Positions 7,958 through 44,185 are shown, counted from the first letter of the stretch. The stretch: 64,000 nt of DNA from Ignavibacteriota bacterium (GCA_963790045.1 CAWBMS010000008.1:133126-197125); one strand, 5' to 3'. Numbers and translations: made by a program. The notes: a model not told the origin generated them from the sequence alone.

Positions 7958-9334
7958 ATGGCATTAATGGTTAGCATTTCAGGAATTCGCGGCACCATCG
8001 GCGATTCACTTACACCGGAAACAATTGTGAAATATGCGGCAGCGTATGCGGAATATTGCAAACGCGGACACATTATTATTGGACGGGATGGAAGAATCAC
8101 CGGTAAGAATGTTGAGGATATTGTTGTTTCAACATTGGTACAAATGGGCTGCGAGGTAACAACGCTGGGCATTTGTCCCACACCGACTGTTGCTCTTGCT
8201 GTGGAAAAGCTTAAAGCTGCGGGCGGCATCTCCATTACCGCAAGCCACAATCCGATGATCTGGAACGGATTGAAATTTTTTGCATCCACCGGTTTATTTT
8301 TGGATGCTGATGAGAATCATGCGTTCTGGAAATTAGCCGGTGTTTCATCGCACACATACGTCCCGTGGGATAAACAAGGCAAGCATCAATCACTCGAATC
8401 ATTTATTGATGATCACAACAATGCTGTTCTTTCTCTTCCTTTTTTAAAAGTTGCAGACATTCGCAAACGGCATTTCAAAATTGTATTAGATTGTGTGAAT
8501 GCTGCCGGCGGGGCAATCGTTCCAAAACTTTTAGCGGAATTCGGCTGCGAAGTTATTCCGTTGAGCTGCGATATTTCCGGTGTTTTTTCTCATACGCCGG
8601 AGCCGATCCCAGAAAATCTTACCGATTTATGCCATGCCGTGAAGATGCATAAAGCCGATCTTGGCATTGCCGTCGATCCTGATGTTGATCGATTGGTGCT
8701 GATCAATGAAAAAGGCGAACCATACGGCGAAGAATACACCATCGCAACGTGCGTGGATTTTGTTTTGAAAAAATTAAAATCGCTTCCATCGACAACCGAC
8801 AATCAAAAATTTCAAGTCGTCGTTAATCTTTCTACAACGCGTGCTGTTGAAGATATCGCAGCAAAGTATGGTGCGAGCGCGACACGAACGCCTGTTGGAG
8901 AAATTAATGTTGCAAAGAGAATGAAAGAATTGAACGCGGTGGTCGGCGGTGAAGGAAGCGGTGGAATAATTTTACCTGCCGTGCATCTTGGTAGAGATGC
9001 CATGGTCGGTATTGCACTTGTCTTGCAGCATCTCACAGAATTCGGCGGAACATTGTCTGCATTGAAAGCGACGCTGCCGCAGTATCTCATTACGAAAGGA
9101 AAAGTCGCACTCGGCACCTTGAATGCCGATGGCATTCTGAAACGCCTTCAACAACAATATGCTGCCGGCGGAAAAATCAATACCGATGACGGATTAAAAA
9201 TTGATTTTGCGGATTCGTGGGTTCATCTTCGTAAATCGAACACCGAGCCCATCATCCGCATCATCGCCGAAGCGCATTCCAAGTCCGAAGCAGATGCGCT
9301 CGTTCAAAGATTTACCAAGGAAATTTTTTCATAA
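7958..9334 (+). CDS. glmM: phosphoglucosamine mutase / phosphomannomutase family protein
   Basis: It has the active-site TASHNP motif and the GIRGT N-terminal motif of the PGM/PMM family. Confidence 0.8.
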   Translation: MALMVSISGIRGTIGDSLTPETIVKYAAAYAEYCKRGHIIIGRDGRITGKNVEDIVVSTLVQMGCEVTTLGICPTPTVALAVEKLKAAGGISITASHNPMIWNGLKFFASTGLFLDADENHAFWKLAGVSSHTYVPWDKQGKHQSLESFIDDHNNAVLSLPFLKVADIRKRHFKIVLDCVNAAGGAIVPKLLAEFGCEVIPLSCDISGVFSHTPEPIPENLTDLCHAVKMHKADLGIAVDPDVDRLVLINEKGEPYGEEYTIATCVDFVLKKLKSLPSTTDNQKFQVVVNLSTTRAVEDIAAKYGASATRTPVGEINVAKRMKELNAVVGGEGSGGIILPAVHLGRDAMVGIALVLQHLTEFGGTLSALKATLPQYLITKGKVALGTLNADGILKRLQQQYAAGGKINTDDGLKIDFADSWVHLRKSNTEPIIRIIAEAHSKSEADALVQRFTKEIFS

Positions 9335-9355: not shown

Positions 9356-10456
9356 ATGGTGCAAAACATTCGCGATCTTCTTCGGCTTGCTTCTGTTCCG
9401 AAAATCGGCGCACAGAAAATTCGCGCGCTTGTTGCCCATTTCAAATCTGTCGAAAATGTTTTCGGCGCTTCGATAAAGGAACTTGCCCAAGTTTCCGGTA
9501 TCGATAAAAAAATCGCGTCGCACATTCTCCACCATACCGACGGTGAAAAATTTGCCGATGAACAGCTTAAACGATTGAATCGAATCAACGGACGTATTCT
9601 CACCATCTGGGATAAAGAATATCCTGAATTACTGAAGAAGATTTACGATCCACCGGCATTACTTTTTGTGCTGGGAAATTTTAACAACGCCGATCTTCGT
9701 TCCATCGGCATGGTCGGCACACGGCATCCGACATCCTATGGACAAACTGTGACCGAGCAATTATTTACCGAACTCGCCCGCCAGCAAATCACCATCGTCA
9801 GCGGATTGGCGCGCGGCATCGACACCATCGCCCACACAACGGCGCTCCATGCCAACACGCGAACGATTGCTGTGATCGGATCGGGAATCGATGTTCCCTA
9901 TCCGCCGGAAAATAAAAAATTGATGGACCGTATTGTGGAACACGGCGTAGTCGTTTCGGAATTTTTTATGGGCACAAAACCCGATGCACCGAATTTTCCA
10001 CGGCGCAACCGCATCATCAGCGGATTATCTGTCGGCACGGTTGTGATTGAATCTGCGGAAGACGGCGGCGCAATGATTACCGCTTCTACCGCATTGGATC
10101 AAGACCGCGAAGTGTTTGCTATTCCCGGCAACATCACCGAGAAACGCAGCGCAGGGACCAACAAACTGATCCGCGAGGGGCGTGCAAAACTTATCACCAA
10201 TGTCGAAGATATTTTTGCTGAGTTACAACTTCAATTGAGTTTGCCACTTGATGATGCAGCACCGACACGTGTCACGCTCAATCTGTCCTCGGCGGAACAA
10301 CAGATTTTTAATCTTCTTGCATCGGATCCAACACACATCGATGCACTTGCTGAACAAGCAAACGCTGCCACTTCCGACGTTCTCGTCTCATTGCTTTCGT
10401 TGGAATTCAAAGGCATCGTCCGGCAGTTACCCGGCAAACTGTTTATGAAGCTATGA
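9356..10456 (+). CDS. dprA: DNA processing protein DprA (Smf)
   Basis: It has the conserved GLARGIDTIAHTTAL Rossmann core of DprA. Confidence 0.85.
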   Translation: MVQNIRDLLRLASVPKIGAQKIRALVAHFKSVENVFGASIKELAQVSGIDKKIASHILHHTDGEKFADEQLKRLNRINGRILTIWDKEYPELLKKIYDPPALLFVLGNFNNADLRSIGMVGTRHPTSYGQTVTEQLFTELARQQITIVSGLARGIDTIAHTTALHANTRTIAVIGSGIDVPYPPENKKLMDRIVEHGVVVSEFFMGTKPDAPNFPRRNRIISGLSVGTVVIESAEDGGAMITASTALDQDREVFAIPGNITEKRSAGTNKLIREGRAKLITNVEDIFAELQLQLSLPLDDAAPTRVTLNLSSAEQQIFNLLASDPTHIDALAEQANAATSDVLVSLLSLEFKGIVRQLPGKLFMKL

Positions 10457-23689: not shown

Positions 23690-24010
23690 TCCCCGAATGG
23701 CTTTTCCCCTGCTCGTGCATGTTTTTCCTTCACAATTTTTATAAAAAGTTCATGCGTCTGTGCTTTCGCCCTTCTCCCGAACGTAATTTCCCAACGCCCA
23801 ATATCATTTTCCCTTCTCTTTTTTGTAATTATTTTACACCGGATGGCTTTTTCCTAATCCCGATTACAATTTCCCAACCCACGGACGGCGTTTCCCTTCT
23901 CCCGAACGCGTTTTCCCATCCCCCGACTGGTTTTTCTCTTCTCTTTTTTGTAAAAATTTCAGCCCGAACGTCTTTTCCCTAATCCCGGACATTCATTTTT
24001 TGCCCCCGTG
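23690..24010. repeat. degenerate tandem repeats (units of about 25-30 nt, CCCGAACG...TTTTCCC)
   Basis: The motifs cccgaacg / tttccc(t/a) recur in the non-coding tract upstream of the REP cluster. Confidence 0.5.
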
Positions 24011-24027
24011 GAGGTATTTCCCTGAAT

Positions 24028-24257
24028 GTGACCGTCACCCACTCCGTTTAATCTAAGCTGGTGACGGTCACATGCTCTGTTCTCAATTCGTGACCGTCAC
24101 CTACTCCGTCTAAGCCAAGCTGGTGACAGTCACATGCTCTGTTCTCGATTCGTGACATTCACCTACTCCGTTTAAGCCAAGCTGGTGACGACCACACCCC
24201 CGGCTTAAATTGTGACCGTCACTCGCGCTGTTTTAGCTTGGTAAGTGATGGTCACAT
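24028..24257. repeat. REP palindrome array (GTGACCGTCAC / GTGACGGTCAC alternating, about 4 units)
   Basis: Perfect 11-nt palindromic cores alternate in orientation at spacings of about 30 nt. Confidence 0.8.
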
Positions 24258-24267
24258 AATCCTTTTG

Positions 24268-24843
24268 TTACGAAAAAATATATTTCTCTATTTTGTATTT
24301 ATCCTCCGCCTGATACAATTCAACAAATTGTTGATACGTATTATTTTGAGAGAACTGTTCCAATACAATTTCCGGATGGATGAATTGTATCGGTATATCT
24401 CCGTAATATTCTTTGCAACTGCTAAATTGCCAATGCTGTGGCTGGGAAACAAGTTTCGCCCGAACAGGATTCAGATGGATATACCGCGAAAGATGAAGAA
24501 GATACTCGTTCTCTTCAATCTGTCGTAATTTATATTTTCCATCGAACAAATGCCCCGTCCGCTGCTGTTCCAAATTAACGGCCTTCACATATCCGTTACA
24601 AAGTTTTGCAATAAATTGCGACAACCCGTTTGCGTCGAGTTGTTGAAGAATGAAATGATAATGATTGGGCATAAGACAGTAGGCGATCATTTTGACAGCA
24701 GCTGGAGCGAGTGCATTTTGCATGCGTTCGAGGAACATTTGATATTGGTAGGGATGGAAAAATATAGAAGAATGATTGTTACCACGATTATACACATGGA
24801 AGTAAGAATCAACAGAAGCAAGATATTTTGTTTTGATGGACAT
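24268..24843 (-). CDS. REP-associated tyrosine transposase (RAYT, IS200-like Y1/HUH)
   Basis: It has the HUH motif CLMPNHYHFIL and a conserved Tyr region, and is flanked on both sides by GTGACCGTCAC REP arrays. Confidence 0.8.
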   Translation of the reverse strand: MSIKTKYLASVDSYFHVYNRGNNHSSIFFHPYQYQMFLERMQNALAPAAVKMIAYCLMPNHYHFILQQLDANGLSQFIAKLCNGYVKAVNLEQQRTGHLFDGKYKLRQIEENEYLLHLSRYIHLNPVRAKLVSQPQHWQFSSCKEYYGDIPIQFIHPEIVLEQFSQNNTYQQFVELYQAEDKYKIEKYIFS

Positions 24844-24870
24844 CGACTAAATCTCCTCACCTGCTCATCT

Positions 24871-25180
24871 GTGACCGTCACCTACTCTGTTCAAGCTTAG
24901 CTGGTGACGGTCACATGCTCTGTTCTCAATTCGTGACATTCACCCACTCCGTTTAATCTAAGCTGGTGACGGTCACATGCTCTGTTCTCAATTCGTGACC
25001 GTCACCCACTCCGTTTAAGCCAAGCTGGTGACAGTCACATGCTCTGTTCTCGATTCGTGACCGTCACCTACTCTGTTCAAGCTTTGCCGGTGACGGTCAC
25101 ACTCCACCGGCTTAGCTCGTGACCGTCACTTGCTCTATTTCAACTTGGTAAGTGACGGTCACATGATCCGGTCACATAAC
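24871..25180. repeat. REP palindrome array, same family as 24028-24257 (about 5 units)
   Basis: It has the same GTGAC(C/G)GTCAC cores. Confidence 0.8.
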
Positions 25181-26043: not shown

Positions 26044-26115
26044 TTATGCATGTGACCGTCACCTACTCGTGCATGTGACCGTCACTCGCTTTGCGTTGAC
26101 AGAGTTAGTGACGGT
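26044..26115. repeat. REP palindromes (GTGACCGTCAC family), isolated pair
   Basis: The sequence reads gtgaccgtcacctactcgtgcatgtgaccgtcactcgc...agtgacggtcac. Confidence 0.7.
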
Positions 26116-26135
26116 CACAAACTTTGTCCGTTTTC

Positions 26136-26234: not shown

Positions 26235-26790
26235 GTTTCAACTTCCTTTCAAATGGAATAACTGTCAGCGGCAGAGGCAACAAAAGTTGATTGCGAAACG
26301 TTTCAACTTCCTTTCAAATGGAATAACTGTCAGCATGACTTGCAATGATAACATCGTTTTCTTTGTTTCAACTTCCTTTCAAATGGAATAACTGTCAGCC
26401 ATAAATAATCATCGCTTTGATATTGTACTGTTTCAACTTCCTTTCAAATGGAATAACTGTCAGCACAATTCCGGAGCGGGAAGAACCTATAGCGGTTTCA
26501 ACTTCCTTTCAAATGGAATAACTGTCAGCAGAGGGCAAAGAGAAGAATTGCGATTGCTAGTTTCAACTTCCTTTCAAATGGAATAACTGTCAGCCGCTCA
26601 AGATGTTAAGCCGCTACTTAATCGGTTTCAACTTCCTTTCAAATGGAATAACTGTCAGCATGCTCGAAGTTCTTCTTCGTTCGCGCCTGTGTTTCAACTT
26701 CCTTTCAAATGGAATAACTGTCAGCCGCATAGGTCGTGAGCAACGTTGCTTGTAAGTTTCAACTTCCTTTCAAATGGAATAACTGTCAGC
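26235..26790. CRISPR. CRISPR array with 9 identical 35-nt repeats (GTTTCAACTTCCTTTCAAATGGAATAACTGTCAGC) and 8 unique spacers of 30-31 nt
   Basis: Repeats start at 26235, 26300, 26365, 26430, 26495, 26560, 26625, 26691 and 26756, and all are identical. The spacers are unique and non-repetitive. The minus-strand reading of the repeat ends in GTTGAAAC. Confidence 0.95.
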
Positions 26791-26908
26791 TTAGTACCAT
26801 GCAAATCCCAGTTCTTCATAGGGTTAGAGAATAAATAGTATAGAAATAAACGGGAAGAACGCAGTTTATTGAAGGGGAGATACCAAAAAATCCATTGTAC
26901 TTGGAATT

Positions 26909-26931
26909 GGTGAGTGGGCAAGCCCCTCACC
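26909..26931. ncRNA. stem-loop within the 250-bp cas12-like/array spacer region (candidate tracrRNA or scaffold element)
   Basis: The hairpin ggtgag tgggcaagccc ctcacc lies in the non-coding region between the gene stop (27040) and the array (26790). Confidence 0.25.
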
Positions 26932-27039
26932 TTCCGGATGATGTCGGCGAACGCCGCCATTCTTGCTATATCGGCAGCAAGATGAAACCACCCGTACCGT
27001 CTTCCGTTTTCACAGAAGAAAATGATTCTCTCTTAATTT

Positions 27040-28485
27040 TCAAAGAACAGTGCCGCCAGTATACTTGTGATACCATTCACATTCATCTTTGCGGGTTACC
27101 ACTTTAGTACTTTTGGCTATATTGCATGCGGCATTATAATCCGCATTGACGATTGTATCAAAATTTTTGCACGAGGGATTCTTACATTTAAATTCCGATT
27201 GACTGATACGTTGTTCTTCTGCTTCACTGCCACATTCGGTACATCGCTGGCTGGTATGATACGGATCAATACAGACCACTTCCATTCCTTTGCGGGCAGC
27301 TTTATCTTTGATCATCGTTTGTAATTCAAAGTACGACCAATTACGTAGAACAAAATCTCCCTGCAATGATTTTCCGTTTTCGTCTTTACCGTATCCTTCA
27401 AGAAGTTCTAATTTAATAACACCTGCGCGATACTTTTCTGCGAACTCGATAATGCGTCGCGAAACAGTGTGGTTATAAGTGCGAACAAAATGACGCTCTT
27501 TGTCCTTTAACGCTTCCATAGCTTTCAATTTCTTCCCGCGGCCTTTTCCGCCTTGCGTATTGCGCAAAGCAATTTGTAAATGCTTTCTGCGTTGCTGCAT
27601 TTGTGTACGCACACGTAAGAATTCGTTGCGGCTGCCAATTGCCAGACGGGCAAGCCCATCTGATAATGCACAATATGCCGGAACATTCAAGCCGAGATCG
27701 ACGCCAACCGAACGCGCTGTATCTAATACCAGCTTTTCTTCTTCAAATTTTATTGCGAGCAGTAAGAATATTTTTCTATCCTGCACCTGCATCTGGGAAT
27801 CACACATTTGGTAATCACCGGCAAGCACACGATCCATAATAATTTCGTTGCCACTACGGTCCCGTCCGAACCGTAATTCAAAATTCAACCCTTCTAACCA
27901 ATGCAACAGAACTTTTCCATCCTTCTTTTCAAACCGGAGACTTTCTTTCATAAACGGAATCGGCATGCCTTTTCGGAAACTACTAATTGCTCGTTGACCG
28001 CGGCGAACATCGAGGAGTTCCTTTTTAAACTTATCTACCACCGCATTATTTAATGCAGCTTTAATATAGGAAGGCATATCAGGGAATTCATCGGCAAGCA
28101 TTTGGTAGGTGGAGTTCTTTTCCCCTGTAACATAAAATGCTTCTGCTTCCGTGCGTGCCTCTAATGTTAAAGTGGCTTTTGCTTTGGTAAGTTTCTCTAA
28201 TTTTTTCTGTAATTTTTCTGCCGCGGCTTCGTCGGCTTCTTTCTTTTTTGCTTCTAAAGTTTTTTTATAATCTTCTTTAATTTCCTGCGCCTTTTCGGAA
28301 AGTTTTTCATCTGTCCATACGATTCGTTGTTTGAATGTGTCGTTAAAGTATTGATTGCTAACAATGAGATTTGCTGCACGGAAAACATCGTTGCTTAGTT
28401 GCCGTAAATACCGCCACGCCAAATTACGTTTTTCAGCATCTTGTTCATCTATCCATAATTCTATTTTACGGGTTATGATCGGCAT
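27040..28485 (-). CDS. TnpB/Cas12-like RuvC nuclease (481 aa), a candidate compact type V CRISPR effector
   Basis: RuvC-I is GVDLGLNVPAYCALSDG, RuvC-II is IKLELLEGYGKDENG and RuvC-III is NADYNAACNIAKS. A zinc finger CTECGS...FKCKNPSCKNF lies between RuvC-II and RuvC-III, the same arrangement as in Cas12f/TnpB. A Lys/Glu-rich coiled-coil insertion of about 60 aa follows the N-terminal WED-like region. It has the same orientation as the array and lies 250 bp upstream of it. Confidence 0.8.
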   Translation of the reverse strand: MPIITRKIELWIDEQDAEKRNLAWRYLRQLSNDVFRAANLIVSNQYFNDTFKQRIVWTDEKLSEKAQEIKEDYKKTLEAKKKEADEAAAEKLQKKLEKLTKAKATLTLEARTEAEAFYVTGEKNSTYQMLADEFPDMPSYIKAALNNAVVDKFKKELLDVRRGQRAISSFRKGMPIPFMKESLRFEKKDGKVLLHWLEGLNFELRFGRDRSGNEIIMDRVLAGDYQMCDSQMQVQDRKIFLLLAIKFEEEKLVLDTARSVGVDLGLNVPAYCALSDGLARLAIGSRNEFLRVRTQMQQRRKHLQIALRNTQGGKGRGKKLKAMEALKDKERHFVRTYNHTVSRRIIEFAEKYRAGVIKLELLEGYGKDENGKSLQGDFVLRNWSYFELQTMIKDKAARKGMEVVCIDPYHTSQRCTECGSEAEEQRISQSEFKCKNPSCKNFDTIVNADYNAACNIAKSTKVVTRKDECEWYHKYTGGTVL

Positions 28486-28526
28486 ACTGCATGCTTCCGT
28501 GTTAAATTATTTCTTTGTCTCTTCAT

Positions 28527-28608
28527 CTCACTCCGCCGACTTCCCCAAACGCACTCCTTGGAGAAGCACATTATATCCAACCGTTTTAAACTTGCTGTAA
28601 AGTTACAT
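28527..28608. repeat. copy A of an 80-bp conserved element, located 40-120 bp upstream of the cas12-like start
   Basis: It is near-identical to 29667-29747, which lies upstream of the RAYT gene. It contains gttttaaacttg, resembling the 5' end of the CRISPR repeat (gtttcaacttcc), and on the minus strand a TATAAT-like box (ggatataatg). Confidence 0.7.
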
Positions 28609-28914
28609 GAACGCCTTATTAAAAGCAAATAAATTACTTCTGCTTCGATCATAATATTGTATTTCCCAATAATCCATTATCCTCATGCCTGCGCTCGGTA
28701 TCGGTTGCCCAACATTGAATGTCCTCACCATGAATTTAATTCATTGCTCCATGTTGTGGGCACGTTCCGCCAAATAGACTGCGGATAAACGCAACGTGCC
28801 CCTGCCGATTTTAATCAATACAACAATATTCTGAAAATAATTTTCCATCGTAGGGACGTGATTCATCACGTCCATTTTATTTATTATATCCCTTTCTTGC
28901 ATCACGTCCTCATA

Positions 28915-29010
28915 ACGAATTTATGAATCAAATTAATGGATTTGATGAATCAAATTAATGGATTTGATAAATCAAATTAATGGATTTGATGAATCAAATC
29001 CCTACGATGA
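28915..29010. repeat. tandem array of a 22-bp unit containing the perfect palindrome GGATTTGATGAATCAAATCC (about 4 copies)
   Basis: The unit aatggatttgatgaatcaaatt is repeated. It overlaps the 3' end of the RAYT ORF, and a further copy occurs at about 29340-29380 inside the ORF. Confidence 0.7.
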
Positions 29011-29643
29011 TATATCTGCGTTGAACAATCGTTGTACACTGTCGGGATGTTCATGATCCATTGCCCACATCACAGGGTTTCCGGCAATATATTTACGAAT
29101 GTTGTTCAATTCTTTATCGCTGCGAATAACATGTTCGTAGAAACGGGATTGCCAACGGAAATTATCATATCCCGCATCGTGAATAAATTTCGTCGTCCGC
29201 GCTTTATAATGGCGAACAATTTTACCTAAGGTCAATTTTGGATTTTTCATCAATCCCCATTCATTCGTAGGGACGTGATTTATCACGTCCTGATTTATAT
29301 CCGCATGATTAACCACGTCCGAATGGTTCATCGCATCCCCGTTTAGGATTTGATGAATCAAATCCCTACGATGGTCATATTCCAACAATACCAATATTCC
29401 ATGAACGTGATTGGGCATTATGATATATTCATCCAATTGCACATTTGCAAAATGTTTTGTTATATCGTTCCAACAACGCTCTGCAATTATTCCAATCGGC
29501 AACAAATGGATTGCTTCGTCATTTATTTCACCAAACATATTTTCATGATTATGCGTGCAAATCGTAATAAAATATCCGCCCGGCATCGAGTAGTCGTACT
29601 CTTTTAATCGAATGGATTTTCTCTGACAACGTGTTGCAATCAT
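29002..29643 (-). CDS. REP-associated tyrosine transposase (RAYT, IS200-like Y1/HUH), third family
   Basis: It has the HUH motif IIMPNHVHGILVL and the conserved RWQSRFYEHVIR (Y-motif) region. It is flanked by GGGACGTGAT..ATCACGTCCC palindromes at about 28850-28880 and 29270-29300. Confidence 0.8.
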   Translation of the reverse strand: MIATRCQRKSIRLKEYDYSMPGGYFITICTHNHENMFGEINDEAIHLLPIGIIAERCWNDITKHFANVQLDEYIIMPNHVHGILVLLEYDHRRDLIHQILNGDAMNHSDVVNHADINQDVINHVPTNEWGLMKNPKLTLGKIVRHYKARTTKFIHDAGYDNFRWQSRFYEHVIRSDKELNNIRKYIAGNPVMWAMDHEHPDSVQRLFNADISS

Positions 29644-29666
29644 CGTATGTATCTCTTTGTTTTTAT

Positions 29667-29747
29667 TCCACCGACTTCCCCAAACGCACTCCTTGGAGAA
29701 GCACTTTGTATCTACCTAACCGTTTTAAACTTGGTTTAAAGTTACAT
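29667..29747. repeat. copy B of the 80-bp conserved element, upstream of the RAYT gene
   Basis: It is about 90% identical to copy A (28527-28608). Confidence 0.7.
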
Positions 29748-29989
29748 TATCAAATATTAAAACGCAAGGGGAAGAAGAGAAAAGAGGCAATTGCTATGAA
29801 TTTTTTAGGGAATCAGGTAGAAACATAACCAAAATAGGTTTGAGTAAACAGTTTCAGAAGGTTCTCTTCACGACGATTAAACCGATATTCAACGTCTTTC
29901 GTTGTGCGCAAAATCCCTGATGCAAGCCCACAACGTGAAGAACTCTATAAAAAAGAAAAGGCAGTCACAAAAGTTGTGACTGCCGAGAG

Positions 29990-30062
<73 letters not shown>

Positions 30063-30289
30063 ATCATTATATACATTAATATAACGATTGCTTGCCCCGT
30101 AATCAAGGTAATTCTTTTTTCATTTTTTGCATCATTTCCTCATCATTCTTCCATTGACTTCTCAAATAACCTTTGCGATATTATCGCCACGAAATATTGT
30201 TTAGTTCAAAGCTTTTGCTTTGGAACCTGCCCGGCTGCTGCCATCAAGTGCAACGGCGGCAGATCTACAAACCAGTTTTAGGAGTTCCT

Positions 30290-31619
30290 ATGAAACGGAC
30301 CAGAGTCATTATTATGGGCGCCGCGGGACGGGACTTCCACAATTTCAATACCGTCTTCCGCATAGACGACCGATACGAAGTCGTCGCTTTCACCGCAACA
30401 CAAATTCCCAACATCGATGGACGCAAGTACCCGGCAGAACTTGCCGGTGCATTGTATCCGCACGGCATTCCCATTTTTCCCGAAACGGAATTAACGCGCC
30501 TCATTAAAGAGATGCATGCCGATGAAGTGATCTTTGCTTACAGCGATGTTCCCTTTCAGTATGTGATGAGTAAGGCAGCGCTTGTGATGGCGGCAGGCGC
30601 TGATTTCAAAGTTCAAGGTGCGGCGCCAACGATGTTGAAAAGTAAAGTTCCGGTAATTGCCGTTGTTGCCGTGCGAACCGGAGCCGGCAAAAGTCAAACG
30701 TCGCGTAAAGTGTGTAATATTTTGAGAGCCGCGGGAAAACGTGTTGTGGCAATCAGGCATCCGATGCCGTACGGAGATTTGGTAAAGCAAAAAGTGCAGC
30801 GGTATTCTTCGTTAGAAGATTTGAAAACGTACGAATGCACAGTAGAAGAAATGGAAGAATACGAACCGCATATCGTGAACGGCACGATGATTTATGCCGG
30901 TGTTGATTATGAAGCGATCTTACGGCAAGCGGAACAAGAAGCCGATGTGATCGTGTGGGATGGCGGCAATAACGACATGTCATTCTATCAACCCGATCTC
31001 ACTATTCTCGTCGCCGATCCCCATCGTCCCGGGGCATGAAATTTCCTATTATCCCGGCGCCGTTAATTTATATCTTGCAGATGTGGTCATCATCAACAAA
31101 GTGGAAACGGCAGCACGTGAAAACATCGATGCTGTTCGAAAAAATATCGTTACAATCAATCCGAAGGCAGTCATCATCGAAGCAGCTTCACCCATTACGG
31201 TGGATGATGAATCCATCATTCGCAATAAACGTGTGCTCGTTGTGGAAGATGGTCCAACGCTCACACACGGCGAAATGACATACGGCGCAGGAGTGGTTGC
31301 CGCGCGTATGTTCGGCGCAAAAGAACTTGTCGATCCACGGCCGTGGGTTGTAAATTCTATTGCTGAAACTTTCCAAAAATATCCGCACATTGGTATATTA
31401 CTGCCTGCGATGGGCTATGGTGGAAAACAAATCAAAGATTTGGAAACCACCATTAATCGTGTTGAATGCGATTCGGTAATCATCGGCACGCCGATCGATC
31501 TGCGCCGCATCATCAACATCAACAAACCGTCCACGCGTGTGCGATATGAATTAGATGAAATTGCAAAGCCCGATTTGCACGACATCCTGCAAACATTTTT
31601 ACAGAAACACGGATTGACA
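30290..31619 (+). CDS. P-loop NTPase with an N-terminal Rossmann-like domain (DUF1611 / cyclic-2,3-diphosphoglycerate-synthetase-like), with a +1 frameshift at GGGG 31031-31034
   Basis: It has [10 protein letters not shown] at the N-terminus and a [12 protein letters not shown]-loop. Two ORFs (30290-31039 and 30960-31622) rejoin as ...[14 protein letters not shown] if one G is removed. Confidence 0.45.
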
Positions 31620-31640
31620 TAACTTGAAGGAGAGCTACAC

Positions 31641-32589
31641 ATGAAACGAGATTTTCTAAGTATCAACGATTGGTCCACCAAAGAGCTGTTGGAAGTTTTA
31701 AAAATTTCCCGGCAAATGAAAGCCAATCCAAAAAAGTTTTCCAAAGCGCTTGCCGGAAAATCAGTCGCATTGATTTTTGAAAAACAATCGCTGCGCACGC
31801 ACGTAACGTTTGAAATCGGTGCAAAGCAAATGGGAGCGAACACCACATACCTCACGAATGCGGACATCAGTCTGGGCAAACGCGAAACGATCTATGATGT
31901 GGCAAAAAATTTGGAACGCTGGGTGGATGCTGTCGTCATCCGTACGTATGCGCAGCAAAATGTTGTCGAGCTTGCCAAGTTACGGTTCTCATGTCGTCAT
32001 CAATGCGCTGACGGATCACGAACATCCATGTCAAGCAGTTGGCGATTTCATGACCATACAGGAACATCTTAAAACATTCAAGGGGAAAAAATTTGTATGG
32101 ATCGGCGATGGCAACAATGTCTGTCATTCGTTGATGCTGCTTGCGGCAAAAGTCGGAATGAATTTTACTGCTGTTACACCGCCGACACATAAACCGGATA
32201 CACAGGTTGTTGCGGCTGCAATCGAAGAGGCAAAAAAGACAGGCGCTGTTATTGAAATCATTCACGATCCGGTTGCCGGCGCAACAAATGCCGATGTGAT
32301 TTATACAGATGTCTGGATTAGCATGGGACAGGAAGCCGAACGTGAAACAAAGATGCAGGCGTTTCGTGCATATCAAGTGAATGCAGATTTGATGAAGCGT
32401 GCAAAACCGACCGCCATCTTCCTGCATTGTTTACCGGCACATCGCGGTGAAGAAGTTACCGCAGCTGTGATCGACTCTCCGCAATCAGCAGTGTTTGATG
32501 AAGCGGAGAATCGCCTGCATTCTCAAAAGGCAATTTTGTATTACGCATTGCAGAAAAGCAAGCGCAGTAAGAAATTACGTCGCAGATAA
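31641..32589 (+). CDS. argF: ornithine carbamoyltransferase, with a +1 frameshift near 31977
   Basis: It has the SLRTHVTFE (STRTR) and HCLPAHRGEEV (HCLP) motifs. The frame switches at aagttacgg, and removing one T gives ELAKYGSHVVINALTDHEHP. Confidence 0.85.
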
Positions 32590-32652
32590 TTTATGATAGA
32601 TTTTTCACCTTGCTCCTGAAACCAATTTCAGCAGCAAGGTGATAGATAGAAT
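32493..32652. repeat. direct repeat copy 1 (argF 3' end plus downstream hairpin), duplicated at 33767-33926
   Basis: About 160 bp are near-identical; the last 120 bp, including the caccttgctcctgaaaccaatttcagcagcaaggtga hairpin, are identical. Confidence 0.8.
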
Positions 32653-32766: not shown

Positions 32767-33563
32767 TTATTTGCAGATACCTCCTTGTCCCACATATTGG
32801 AAAGCTTCTATTGGCATTTGGGTAATTTTGGACACATAAAAGAAATTATCGATATACGCTTCGGTTAAAAATTTATCATTCGTCGAATAGGTGAGAAATG
32901 TGCGGAATGATATTGGAGTAGAGATCGTATTAAATTCTGAATACAAAAGAGTAAATTTTTTAGGTACAAATTCATTATTTAGATCTGGCAACCATTTCCC
33001 AGATTGATTATCCAAGTAAAAAACAGTAGGAAAAGGCAATGAAGTATCCTTCATTGATGCTATGCCGGGTTGAAGATCTTCAACCTTCTTCTCTGCAATA
33101 GTATGCATCGCCATGGAGATGATAGTGCCGGGCGGGATAAAGGTAATCCTCTCTGGTTTCGTGATTTGTGATATTGATGACCATGTGGTAGATCGATTTG
33201 CAAAATCTTCAAGTGTTGTAAATGCAGAACCATTGGTTGTCATGGTCGTCAGTACCATCCCAATAATCATGTCTTTGTCTCTCCGGTAATAAAAGAACAT
33301 TTTTTCCAATCGATATAGATCGGTTGATTCAATTTATTGCGAATCAACATCTCAATCGTTCCATTCATCTCCCAAAAAGAATATGTAACTGAGATGGTGT
33401 CATTTTCATATTCAAAATATTGTCCGATTTTTGGACAATTCGTTGATCGTACATCCATCAGTAATACATTGGTTTGTTGGATAGAAGAGGGCATGCATCC
33501 GCTCCACAAACAACCAAACAAAAGGAAGAAGAAACCTGCAAACAATTTCAATACCGTTTTCAT
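32767..33563 (-). CDS. hypothetical lipoprotein or secreted protein, split by a frameshift near a T6 run (about 33290)
   Basis: A 98-aa ORF with a signal peptide/lipobox-like MKTVLKLFAGFFFLLFGCLWSGC and a 180-aa ORF overlap by 43 nt in different frames. The gene lies between the two 160-bp direct repeats. Confidence 0.4.
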
Positions 33564-33766: not shown

Positions 33767-33926
33767 GTCTTCGATGAAGCAGAAAATCGTTTGCATTTTC
33801 AAAAGGCAATTTTGTATTACGCATTGCAGAAAAGCAAGCGCAGTAAAAAATTACGTCGCAGATAATTTATGATAGATTTTTCACCTTGCTCCTGAAACCA
33901 ATTTCAGCAGCAAGGTGATAGACAAC
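33767..33926. repeat. direct repeat copy 2 (pseudo 3' fragment of argF plus hairpin)
   Basis: It encodes ...VFDEAENRLHFQKAILYYALQKSKRSKKLRRR* and the same hairpin. Confidence 0.8.
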
Positions 33927-43477: not shown

Positions 43478-44185
43478 ATGTCAGAAATAACCTTGACGGC
43501 TGAAGTGCGCAAAGCATTTGGAAGACGCGCAAAAACTCTTCGCACCGTCGGAAAAGTCCCCGGCATTTATTATGGTCACGGGCAACAAAATATCGCGGTG
43601 TCGCTTCTGGAGGCATCCCTCCGCCCGCTCTACACGACCACGGCAACACATGTCATCAACTTAAAACTTGATGATGGTTCAACACACCTGTGTGTGCTGC
43701 GCGATGTGCAGCTCGATCCAGTAACAGAAAAGCCGGTACATTTCGATTTATTCGGACTCAGCGAAAACGAGGCAGTAACAATCGAAATCCCTGTTAAATT
43801 AACGGGTGGAATTCCGAAAGGTGTTCGTGACGGCGGTATCTTACAGCAAGTGTTGCATAAACTTCGTGTTTCGTGTTTACCAAAAAATATTCCCGATCAT
43901 ATCGAGATCAATGTCAGCGATTTAGCGATCAACCACTCGGTACACGTGAAGAATATTTCTATTCCCAATGTAACAATTGTGGAAAACGAAACCAGTACTA
44001 TCGTTGGTGTTGTTCCGCCGACAGTTCAGAAAGAAGCTGAAGTCGCCGCAACGACAACCGCGGCAGTTCCTGTTGAAGGAGCCGCACCTGCTGCTGAACC
44101 CGAAGTTATTGCCAAAGGCAAGAAACCGGAAGAAGGCGCAGAAGAAAAACCTGCGGCTCAAAAACCTGCTACTCAGAAAAAGTAA
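43478..44185 (+). CDS. rplY: 50S ribosomal protein L25 / general stress protein Ctc
   Basis: It has the L25 N-terminal domain plus an Ala/Glu/Pro/Lys-rich C-terminal tail. Confidence 0.85.
   Translation: MSEITLTAEVRKAFGRRAKTLRTVGKVPGIYYGHGQQNIAVSLLEASLRPLYTTTATHVINLKLDDGSTHLCVLRDVQLDPVTEKPVHFDLFGLSENEAVTIEIPVKLTGGIPKGVRDGGILQQVLHKLRVSCLPKNIPDHIEINVSDLAINHSVHVKNISIPNVTIVENETSTIVGVVPPTVQKEAEVAATTTAAVPVEGAAPAAEPEVIAKGKKPEEGAEEKPAAQKPATQKK

Follow-up and report, generated by a model that had tools for sequence, protein, structure and literature searches.

Regions directly upstream of unrelated genes that are similar enough to suggest a common source have been described as putative mobile promoters (PMPs). 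As summarized in a commentary (PMC3575422) on the work of Matus-Garcia, Nijveen and van Passel (2012), PMPs are defined by an identity of 80% or more across 50 nt or more, located in the interval of about −150 to −50 upstream of genes that are not paralogues, and most PMP families are pairs with about 92% identity. In the Cas12f-MG119/Al3Cas12f family of nucleases, the experimentally validated guide RNAs include a trans-activating CRISPR RNA (tracrRNA) of 110–135 nt, which is encoded in the intergenic sequence beside the nuclease gene and pairs with the CRISPR repeat through two segments (PMC13186708). Here, we examined a 64-kb stretch of DNA from an Ignavibacteriota bacterium (hereafter, the window), in which two copies of one element are positioned directly upstream of a cas12f gene and of a neighboring gene for a transposase associated with repetitive extragenic palindromic (REP) sequences (RAYT). 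All coordinates are those of the window, and the gene strand is the minus strand for all relevant features. We consider, with a probability of about 0.7, that this element is the region directly upstream of cas12f in this species, which is present twice in this strain, around a 1,135-bp RAYT segment gained or lost by homologous recombination, and which is likely to be a reused leader module.

The initial annotation had described two copies of an 80-nt element, about 90% identical, upstream of a cas12-like gene and the RAYT gene, and this duplication proved to be real. MAFFT and local alignments extended it to approximately 120 nt, as direct copies in the same orientation (Table 1). The copies aligned over 126 columns with 101 matches, corresponding to 80% identity overall and 89% identity in ungapped columns, and the alignment score of 119 compared with 17.5 for shuffled sequences (z = 43). 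Judged from this alignment, the two copies are homologous over about 120 nt. The longest perfect run between them was 34 nt (hereafter, the core), and an identity run of this length exceeded those obtained by shuffling the columns (P = 0.003, or P = 0.0135 for the confident part), whereas outside the core the copies differed by 12 substitutions and five indels. A 24-mer of the core had exactly two matches in the window with up to three mismatches allowed, when none was expected. Relative to the start codon, the element spans −23 to −143 at cas12f and −7 to −124 at the RAYT gene, so the spacing is similar at the two genes, though not equal; the shorter element of the initial annotation ends 41 nt from the cas12f start and 23 nt from the RAYT start.

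The origin of this arrangement became clearer when a sister strain was compared. The window Cas12f falls in a 90%-identity cluster with four members, one of which is encoded on an ENA contig, L014. Positions 1–9954 of L014 correspond to window 39620–29667 at 99.7% identity (9.96 kb), and from position 9874 onward the contig corresponds to window 28608 downward, with L014 9874–9954 aligning to both window copies. The order on L014 is tRNA-Met, its terminator, a 220-nt spacer, a single element, and then cas12f directly; the RAYT gene, the REP cluster, and the spacer at 28629–28842 are all absent. In a three-way alignment, the L014 element was chimeric, being identical to window copy 2 on the 5′ side of the core and to window copy 1 on the 3′ side. 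The chimeric structure indicates that a single homologous exchange within the 34-nt core separates the two alleles. Besides the 5′ part of copy 1 and the 3′ part of copy 2, the DNA that distinguishes them contains the RAYT gene with its REP cluster and the 214-bp spacer. The alignment of the two strains thus shows the copies as direct repeats around a strain-variable RAYT/REP segment. The CRISPR array of L014 shares seven of its nine spacers with the window, the tracr-proximal spacer being different and one internal spacer being extra; because the spacer content differs, L014 is a strain in its own right and not the same genome assembled again.

Two routes to these alleles may be envisaged. 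In the simpler one, the L014 lineage would have lost the segment by deletion between the direct repeats; alternatively, a circular RAYT-bearing fragment may have been integrated in the window lineage by a Campbell-type single crossover. Both processes are matched by the observation that the alleles differ by exactly the inter-repeat DNA and that the single-copy allele switches from one parent copy to the other within the 34-nt identity. In Escherichia coli, RecA-dependent exchange has a minimum homology of roughly 25 nt, and the core is above this length. Unlike a simple direct-repeat case, the repeats here are about 11–20% diverged outside the core. Since this divergence is already present, the original duplication is much older than the strain split; likewise, because the copies differ by their 12 substitutions and five indels whereas the strains differ by 0.3%, the homology between the regions upstream of RAYT and cas12f predates that split under either route. 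As the direct repeats bracket a strain-variable segment, the duplication of the element may be a product of recombination and not the trace of an independently mobile promoter.

Table 1. Features of the cas12f–RAYT region, in window coordinates (descending pairs follow the minus strand)
Feature	Position	Strand	Evidence or remarks
tRNA-Met and its terminator hairpin	30062–29989	minus	
Element copy 2, directly upstream of the RAYT gene	29767–29650	minus	local alignment; the initially annotated 29667–29747 lies inside
34-nt identical core, copy 2	29671–29704	minus	crossover interval of the two alleles lies inside the core
RAYT gene, 213 aa	29643–29002	minus	NCBIfam REP_Tyr_transpos, E = 3e−14; Pfam Y1_Tnp
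GTAG-headed REP hairpin cluster, downstream of the RAYT gene	29009–28843		GTAGGGACGTGATTCATCACGTCC and GTAGGGATTTGATTCATCAAATCC hairpins; 22-nt tandem units
Spacer with hairpin, 214 bp	28842–28629		
Strain-variable segment, 1,135 bp	28570–29704	minus	alignment with L014; its ends may be placed at any point of the 34-nt core
Element copy 1, directly upstream of cas12f	28628–28508	minus	local alignment; the initially annotated 28527–28608 lies inside
34-nt identical core, copy 1	28536–28569	minus	GTGCTTCTCCAAGGAGTGCGTTTGGGGAAGTCGG; 11-bp hairpin in sense RNA
cas12f gene, 481 aa	28485–27040	minus	PDB homology; Pfam Cas12f1-like_TNB; NCBIfam guided_TnpB
Predicted tracrRNA, conserved core	about 27001–26885	minus	conservation in seven loci and covariation
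Predicted anti-repeat 1, GUUUCA	26983–26988 (plus coordinates)		adjoins GGGUG at 26989–26993
Predicted anti-repeat 2, AAUGGA	26891–26896		just before the U-run at 26885–26890
CRISPR array, nine 35-nt repeats and eight 30–31-nt spacers	26790–26235	minus-strand reading	GCTGACAGTTATTCCATTTGAAAGGAAGTTGAAAC

Because the differences between the copies are non-uniform, the copies share orientation and spacing, and a hairpin is strong only in the sense RNA, a cis role on the gene strand is suggested, in which the element would act as a reused upstream or 5′-leader module of the PMP type. The hairpin in the core has 11 bp (eight Watson–Crick and three G–U pairs) and a predicted energy of −13.5 kcal/mol in the sense RNA, compared with −6.6 kcal/mol in the antisense RNA. 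It would be the constrained part of the element and would probably affect leader stability or the translation of the downstream gene. The initial annotation had also read a TATAAT-like box and an AAGGAG-containing leader in the element. AAGGAG is indeed present in both copies, but its distance from the start codons (68 nt in copy 1 and 45 nt in copy 2) means that it is not the Shine–Dalgarno sequence of either gene; TATAAT occurs in copy 1 only (28575–28570), the homologous hexamer of copy 2 being TACAAA. In both copies AAGGAG is followed by a candidate six-codon mini open reading frame (ORF), which reads TTG GGG AAG TCG GCG GAG TGA in copy 1 and ends in GTG GAA TAA in copy 2. A sigma-70 scan yielded no promoter in either copy, and no pair of −35 and −10 hexamers spaced by 16–18 nt was found at homologous positions in both. 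The organism's tRNA genes do carry sigma-70-like boxes. Several other candidates were considered and rejected: a promoter of the Bacteroidetes type (TTTG...TAnnTTTG) at the 5′ border of the element, as TAnnTTTG was found upstream of none of the 51 window ORFs; a continuation of the duplicated sequence through RAYT codons 1–5, which would have shown the direction of copying but was not significant (P = 0.27–0.67); and plus-strand ORFs running across the copies (28355–28600 and 29631–29828), between which a 4-nt indel shifts the frame and leaves no conserved product. The idea that both genes share a promoter or 5′ untranslated region (UTR) module therefore stands in part: the homologous upstream regions make it possible, but a common −35/−10 pair is lacking. 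On the features of the element, we consider a shared promoter or 5′-leader role for RAYT and cas12f to be plausible.

In IS200, a stem-loop in the 5′-UTR occludes the ribosome-binding site of tnpA. The element resembles this leader in that a hairpin in the sense leader precedes a gene of the Y1-transposase family and a Shine–Dalgarno-like AAGGAG is present; it differs in that AAGGAG lies 45–68 nt from the starts, the two sequences are not similar, and cas12f is preceded by this hairpin as well. With 80% overall and 89% ungapped identity over 126 columns upstream of two non-paralogous genes (Cas12f and a Y1 transposase), the pair falls within the PMP definition, and, like the PMPs in the commentary cited above (PMC3575422), it is a pair of similar upstream regions with no Rfam family and no insertion sequence. 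Unlike PMPs, the copies are 1.1 kb apart and form direct repeats around a strain-variable segment, and the promoter is a putative one only.

The element was absent from the region upstream of cas12f in six orthologous loci (L001, L008, L010, L011, L012, and L013) and from the region upstream of the closest RAYT homologue (L004, 61% identity). An nhmmer search with a two-copy profile detected nothing else related to the element, either elsewhere in the window or in eight related loci, and direct reading revealed no copy in L014 14815–21014, a stretch that does not align to the window and on which nhmmer was not run. None of three contig collections (one-genome-per-species bacteria and archaea, JGI metagenomes, and viruses) contained the 24-mer or 22-mer of the core exactly, and the 143-nt element had no BLAST match in plasmids or phages. 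The negatives from the metagenome collection are weak, since the same collection missed a CRISPR repeat although JGI contig Ga0427935_0000371 (L002) carries an identical array; a degenerate CRISPR-repeat pattern was matched in species-representative genome contigs (L009 and L010) but not in the metagenome collection. At the gathering threshold, an Rfam 15 scan of the window returned four tRNAs only, with no match to the element, and a permissive Rfam scan of 26780–29990 returned nothing on the element. The element also has no GTAG-headed palindrome, the hallmark of REPs and REPINs, which are short hairpins that usually occur in many copies and flank a RAYT gene. A resemblance of the core to the promoter regions of the orthologues L010 and L008 (shared TGCTTCTCCA...TTTGG) was considered and discarded, being not significant against shuffled sequences. 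On these searches, the element is lineage-specific.

The most serious rival to leader function is that the copies are a neutral scar, left behind when recombination or duplication brought the RAYT segment to its place upstream of cas12f, without any regulatory role and with a core that is identical owing to gene conversion or a recent crossover; we regard this as possible rather than probable. Several observations favor it and weigh against our preferred reading. No sigma-70-like promoter reaches 9/12 in either copy, and in a relaxed scan the best −10-like boxes (TATAAT in copy 1, without a −35 box, and GATAAT in copy 2) were at non-homologous positions, so that there is no promoter consensus at corresponding sites. 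The one 9/12 candidate promoter for cas12f (28837–28808) belongs to the strain-variable segment and is found upstream of copy 1. The fold z-scores of the whole element (−0.2 to −1.6) were not significant, the element is conserved in none of the orthologous cas12f or RAYT loci, and a second bracketed insertion in the window, at a carbamoyltransferase 3′ end, formed without promoter logic. With two copies and one chimera only, constraint on the core is not separable from gene conversion. Furthermore, the RAYT-less allele is represented by one assembly, L014, which looks error-prone, cas12f being broken there into fragments of 337 and 70 aa, and the copy number of the element applies to the 64-kb window, beyond which further genomic copies may exist. 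A scar would not by itself account for the non-uniform distribution of differences with the 34-nt perfect run, the common orientation and similar start-codon distances, or a hairpin that is strong on the gene-sense strand only, and it is these features that incline us toward a leader module. Copies elsewhere in the genome would be expected if the element belonged to a multi-copy family of dispersed intergenic repeats, such as miniature inverted-repeat transposable elements or REP- or Correia-like sequences, of which the two copies would be chance members. In favor of this are the abundance of repeat families in the window (two REP types and other arrays) and the end of the short-read contig L003, whose opening base coincides exactly with that of the core, as would be expected at a branch of an assembly graph; the element scan, moreover, covered these 64 kb of the genome. 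Nevertheless, there are just two copies in 64 kb and none by direct reading in L014 14815–21014, terminal inverted repeats and GTAG-hairpin REP anatomy are absent, the three large contig collections gave no exact core match and the plasmids and phages no BLAST match, and a copy number of two is already explained by the bracketing of the strain-variable segment. We therefore judge a dispersed repeat to be unlikely.

An assembly artefact, in which copy 2 and the RAYT gene of the window would be a chimeric join or the single copy of L014 a collapsed repeat, is more doubtful still. Repeats are classic sites of misassembly, and the frameshifted cas12f of L014 points to errors in that contig; against this, the 12 substitutions and five indels outside the core would not result from duplication by an assembler, the skipped 1.1 kb is unique, a 34-nt core seems too short for a collapse in a long-contig assembly, and L014 is a distinct strain by its spacer content. 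We attach slightly less weight to two speculative roles, in which the core would be an attachment-like site for the integration and excision of the RAYT/REP segment as a cassette, possibly through the single-strand hairpin chemistry of the RAYT itself, or a common leader coupling the expression of RAYT (a domesticated TnpA-like gene) to that of Cas12f (a domesticated TnpB-like gene), echoing the TnpA–TnpB pair of IS605. The least probable explanation, which we regard as effectively dismissed, is that of the initial annotation, in which plus-strand RNA from the element is an alternative anti-repeat or tracrRNA, or the element is a relic of repeat-derived sequence. It draws on a single short similarity, between GTTTTAAACTTG in the element and GTTTCAACTTCC in the repeat. 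This 12-mer was said to match the 5′ end of the CRISPR repeat at 11 of 12 positions; the actual comparison gave nine matches, two mismatches, and one indel (edit distance 3–4), and outside the array the window contains 236 sites that match the first 12 nt of the repeat within three edits, equal to or better than the element, and 27 within two edits. Nor did the proposed pairing of the 12-mer RNA with the CRISPR RNA (crRNA) stand out. RNAduplex energies between the crRNA repeat, in either orientation, and 40-nt windows over the element ranged from −5 to −13.6 kcal/mol, within the bulk of a background of 25,344 windows (mean −10.5, sd 3.1 kcal/mol for the minus-strand crRNA), of which a fraction of 0.15–0.98 was at least as good as the element duplexes. 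On the anti-repeat reading, the 12-mer would also have to be read from the strand opposite to both genes, and there the scan detected no sigma-70-like promoter inside copy 1 or copy 2. In addition, the element is missing from the six orthologous cas12f loci, whereas a conserved tracrRNA with covariation is predicted downstream of cas12f. Compared with the array spacers and the terminal pseudo-spacer, the element gave chance 9-nt matches only, with no self-targeting. These comparisons show that the resemblance between the element and the CRISPR repeat is no greater than chance would give. As a side observation, several coding windows (9071–9110, 44006–44055 on the minus strand, and others) paired with the crRNA repeat at RNAduplex energies from −27 to −29 kcal/mol, which surpass both the element and the true tracrRNA (−18.9 kcal/mol) and are compatible with chance by a rough extreme-value estimate. 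Because coding windows outscore the true tracrRNA, duplex energy alone cannot identify anti-repeats.

The guide-RNA parts of this system were instead located on the other side of the nuclease gene. A stretch of approximately 115 nt that follows cas12f is conserved across seven loci, namely the window and the six orthologous loci listed above, whose Cas12f proteins are 50–72% identical to that of the window. The hexamer directly 3′ of an invariant GGGUG complements the six 3′-terminal nucleotides of the repeat at the same locus, and the two covary (GUUUCA/UGAAAC, GUUGCA/UGCAAC, and GUUGUG/CACAAC). A second anti-repeat also tracks the repeat, as AAUGGA/UCCAUU in the window and CAAAUAAC/GUUAUUUG in L011. 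Conservation and covariation thus show that the predicted tracrRNA and its anti-repeats lie downstream of cas12f. With its two-segment anti-repeat and its position beside the nuclease gene, the RNA predicted at 27001–26885 resembles the MG119/Al3Cas12f guides (PMC13186708). The element, in contrast, is unlike a type V-F tracrRNA of that description (PMC13186708), as it is located upstream, is not conserved, shows no covariation, and shares only the chance-level resemblance of the 12-mer. Two sigma-70-like matches on the minus strand were noted in this region. TTGATA-17-TATAAT at 27161–27133 (11/12), the strongest in the region, lies inside the 3′ end of cas12f and upstream of the tracrRNA, and the weaker TTGCCC-16-TACAAT at 26921–26894 lies inside the tracrRNA, just upstream of the array; by position and motif, they are candidate promoters of the tracrRNA and the array, respectively. 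The array was read on the minus strand, and this reading is supported by the strain difference being at the tracr-proximal spacer. Because the arrays of the two 99.7%-identical strains (window 26235–26790 and L014 11695–12317) differ by two spacers, spacer turnover is recent. Among the ORFs adjoining the array, to which this inspection was confined, there was no cas1 or cas2. In the short-read contig L003 only one CRISPR repeat is present, which probably reflects an assembly collapse.

The two genes that carry the element were identified as follows. The 481-aa protein matched solved structures, with Al3Cas12f (9nzo/9nzr; E = 1.3e−93) ahead of 8hr5 (E = 2e−70), and Cas12f catalytic motifs (GVDLG, IKLELLEG, and NADYNAACNIA) were identified by eye only. 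By this homology, the TNB domain, a length within the 400–700 aa of such TnpB-like RuvC/TNB proteins, and the adjacent array and tracrRNA, the protein is Cas12f, a type V-F effector. The 213-aa gene product scored below the curated NCBIfam cut-off for REP_Tyr_transpos (53 versus 80 bits), which is attributed to an internal insert. Its HUH motif (HVHGI) and Tyr motif (RFYEHVIR) are retained in an alignment with nine homologues, and its true REPs are found at 28854, 28982, 29271, and 29346; the REPs that flank the gene lie on its downstream side only. The Y1 HUH fold, the HUH and catalytic Tyr motifs, and the REPs identify this gene as a RAYT. The segment between the element copies accordingly resembles other REP/RAYT systems (REPINs) in being a typical RAYT locus with HUH and Tyr motifs and GTAG-headed hairpins nearby; unlike a REP, the 120-nt element itself lacks the anatomy of a GTAG hairpin, and this RAYT has no REP upstream. 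Both REP hairpin types also occur inside the RAYT ORF (29266–29375), where they are in frame and encode RDLIHQI and DVINHVPT. RDLI[N/H]QI is retained in all nine aligned RAYT homologues and the DVINHVPT motif in some, and the length of the interval between the HUH and Tyr motifs varies widely among RAYT homologues. Window 30173–31622 (plus strand) contains a pair of overlapping ORFs of 288 and 220 aa, and the corresponding place in L014 is taken by a single gene of 443 aa, reflecting either a frameshift in the window or an error in L014.

Other repeats were observed in the window. A 156-bp direct repeat with 95% identity (32491–32646 and 33767–33922) duplicates the 3′ end of the carbamoyltransferase gene and its terminator hairpin, and encloses about 1.1 kb with minus-strand ORFs (32767–33563) that have no family match; this bracketed insertion has the same architecture as the RAYT segment and is present in both the window and L014. 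A second, unrelated RAYT gene (RAYT-2, 191 aa, 24268–24843) has on either side an array of 62-nt units based on GTGACCGTCAC...GTGACGGTCAC palindromes (23966–24264 and 24866–25171), one more such unit (26050–26127) lies just beyond the CRISPR array, and the collinearity between the window and L014 stops at window 23736, beside the 62-nt arrays. Near the start of the window, repeat units about 64–70 nt apart with GGACACGCATTTGGCTATGCCATCCC...GGGACCTGCGTGTC occupy 435–1510, and a 21-nt periodic repeat (CATTG[C/T]TTC...) at 1564–1865 largely overlaps the ORF at 1600–2070.

As a kind of feature, a duplicated upstream region forming recombination-prone direct repeats is ordinary and the stakes are modest; the informative twist is the RAYT presence/absence allele. 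The analysis removes a false tracrRNA lead and illustrates that short similarities to a CRISPR repeat need a background test before an anti-repeat label is applied, while the predicted guide-RNA parts of a system related to Al3Cas12f, a genome-editing nuclease, have been located with support from covariation. The element probably adds one more reused upstream region in front of unrelated genes, and the locus provides a natural RAYT presence/absence polymorphism between near-identical strains, which arises via recombination in a 34-nt core.

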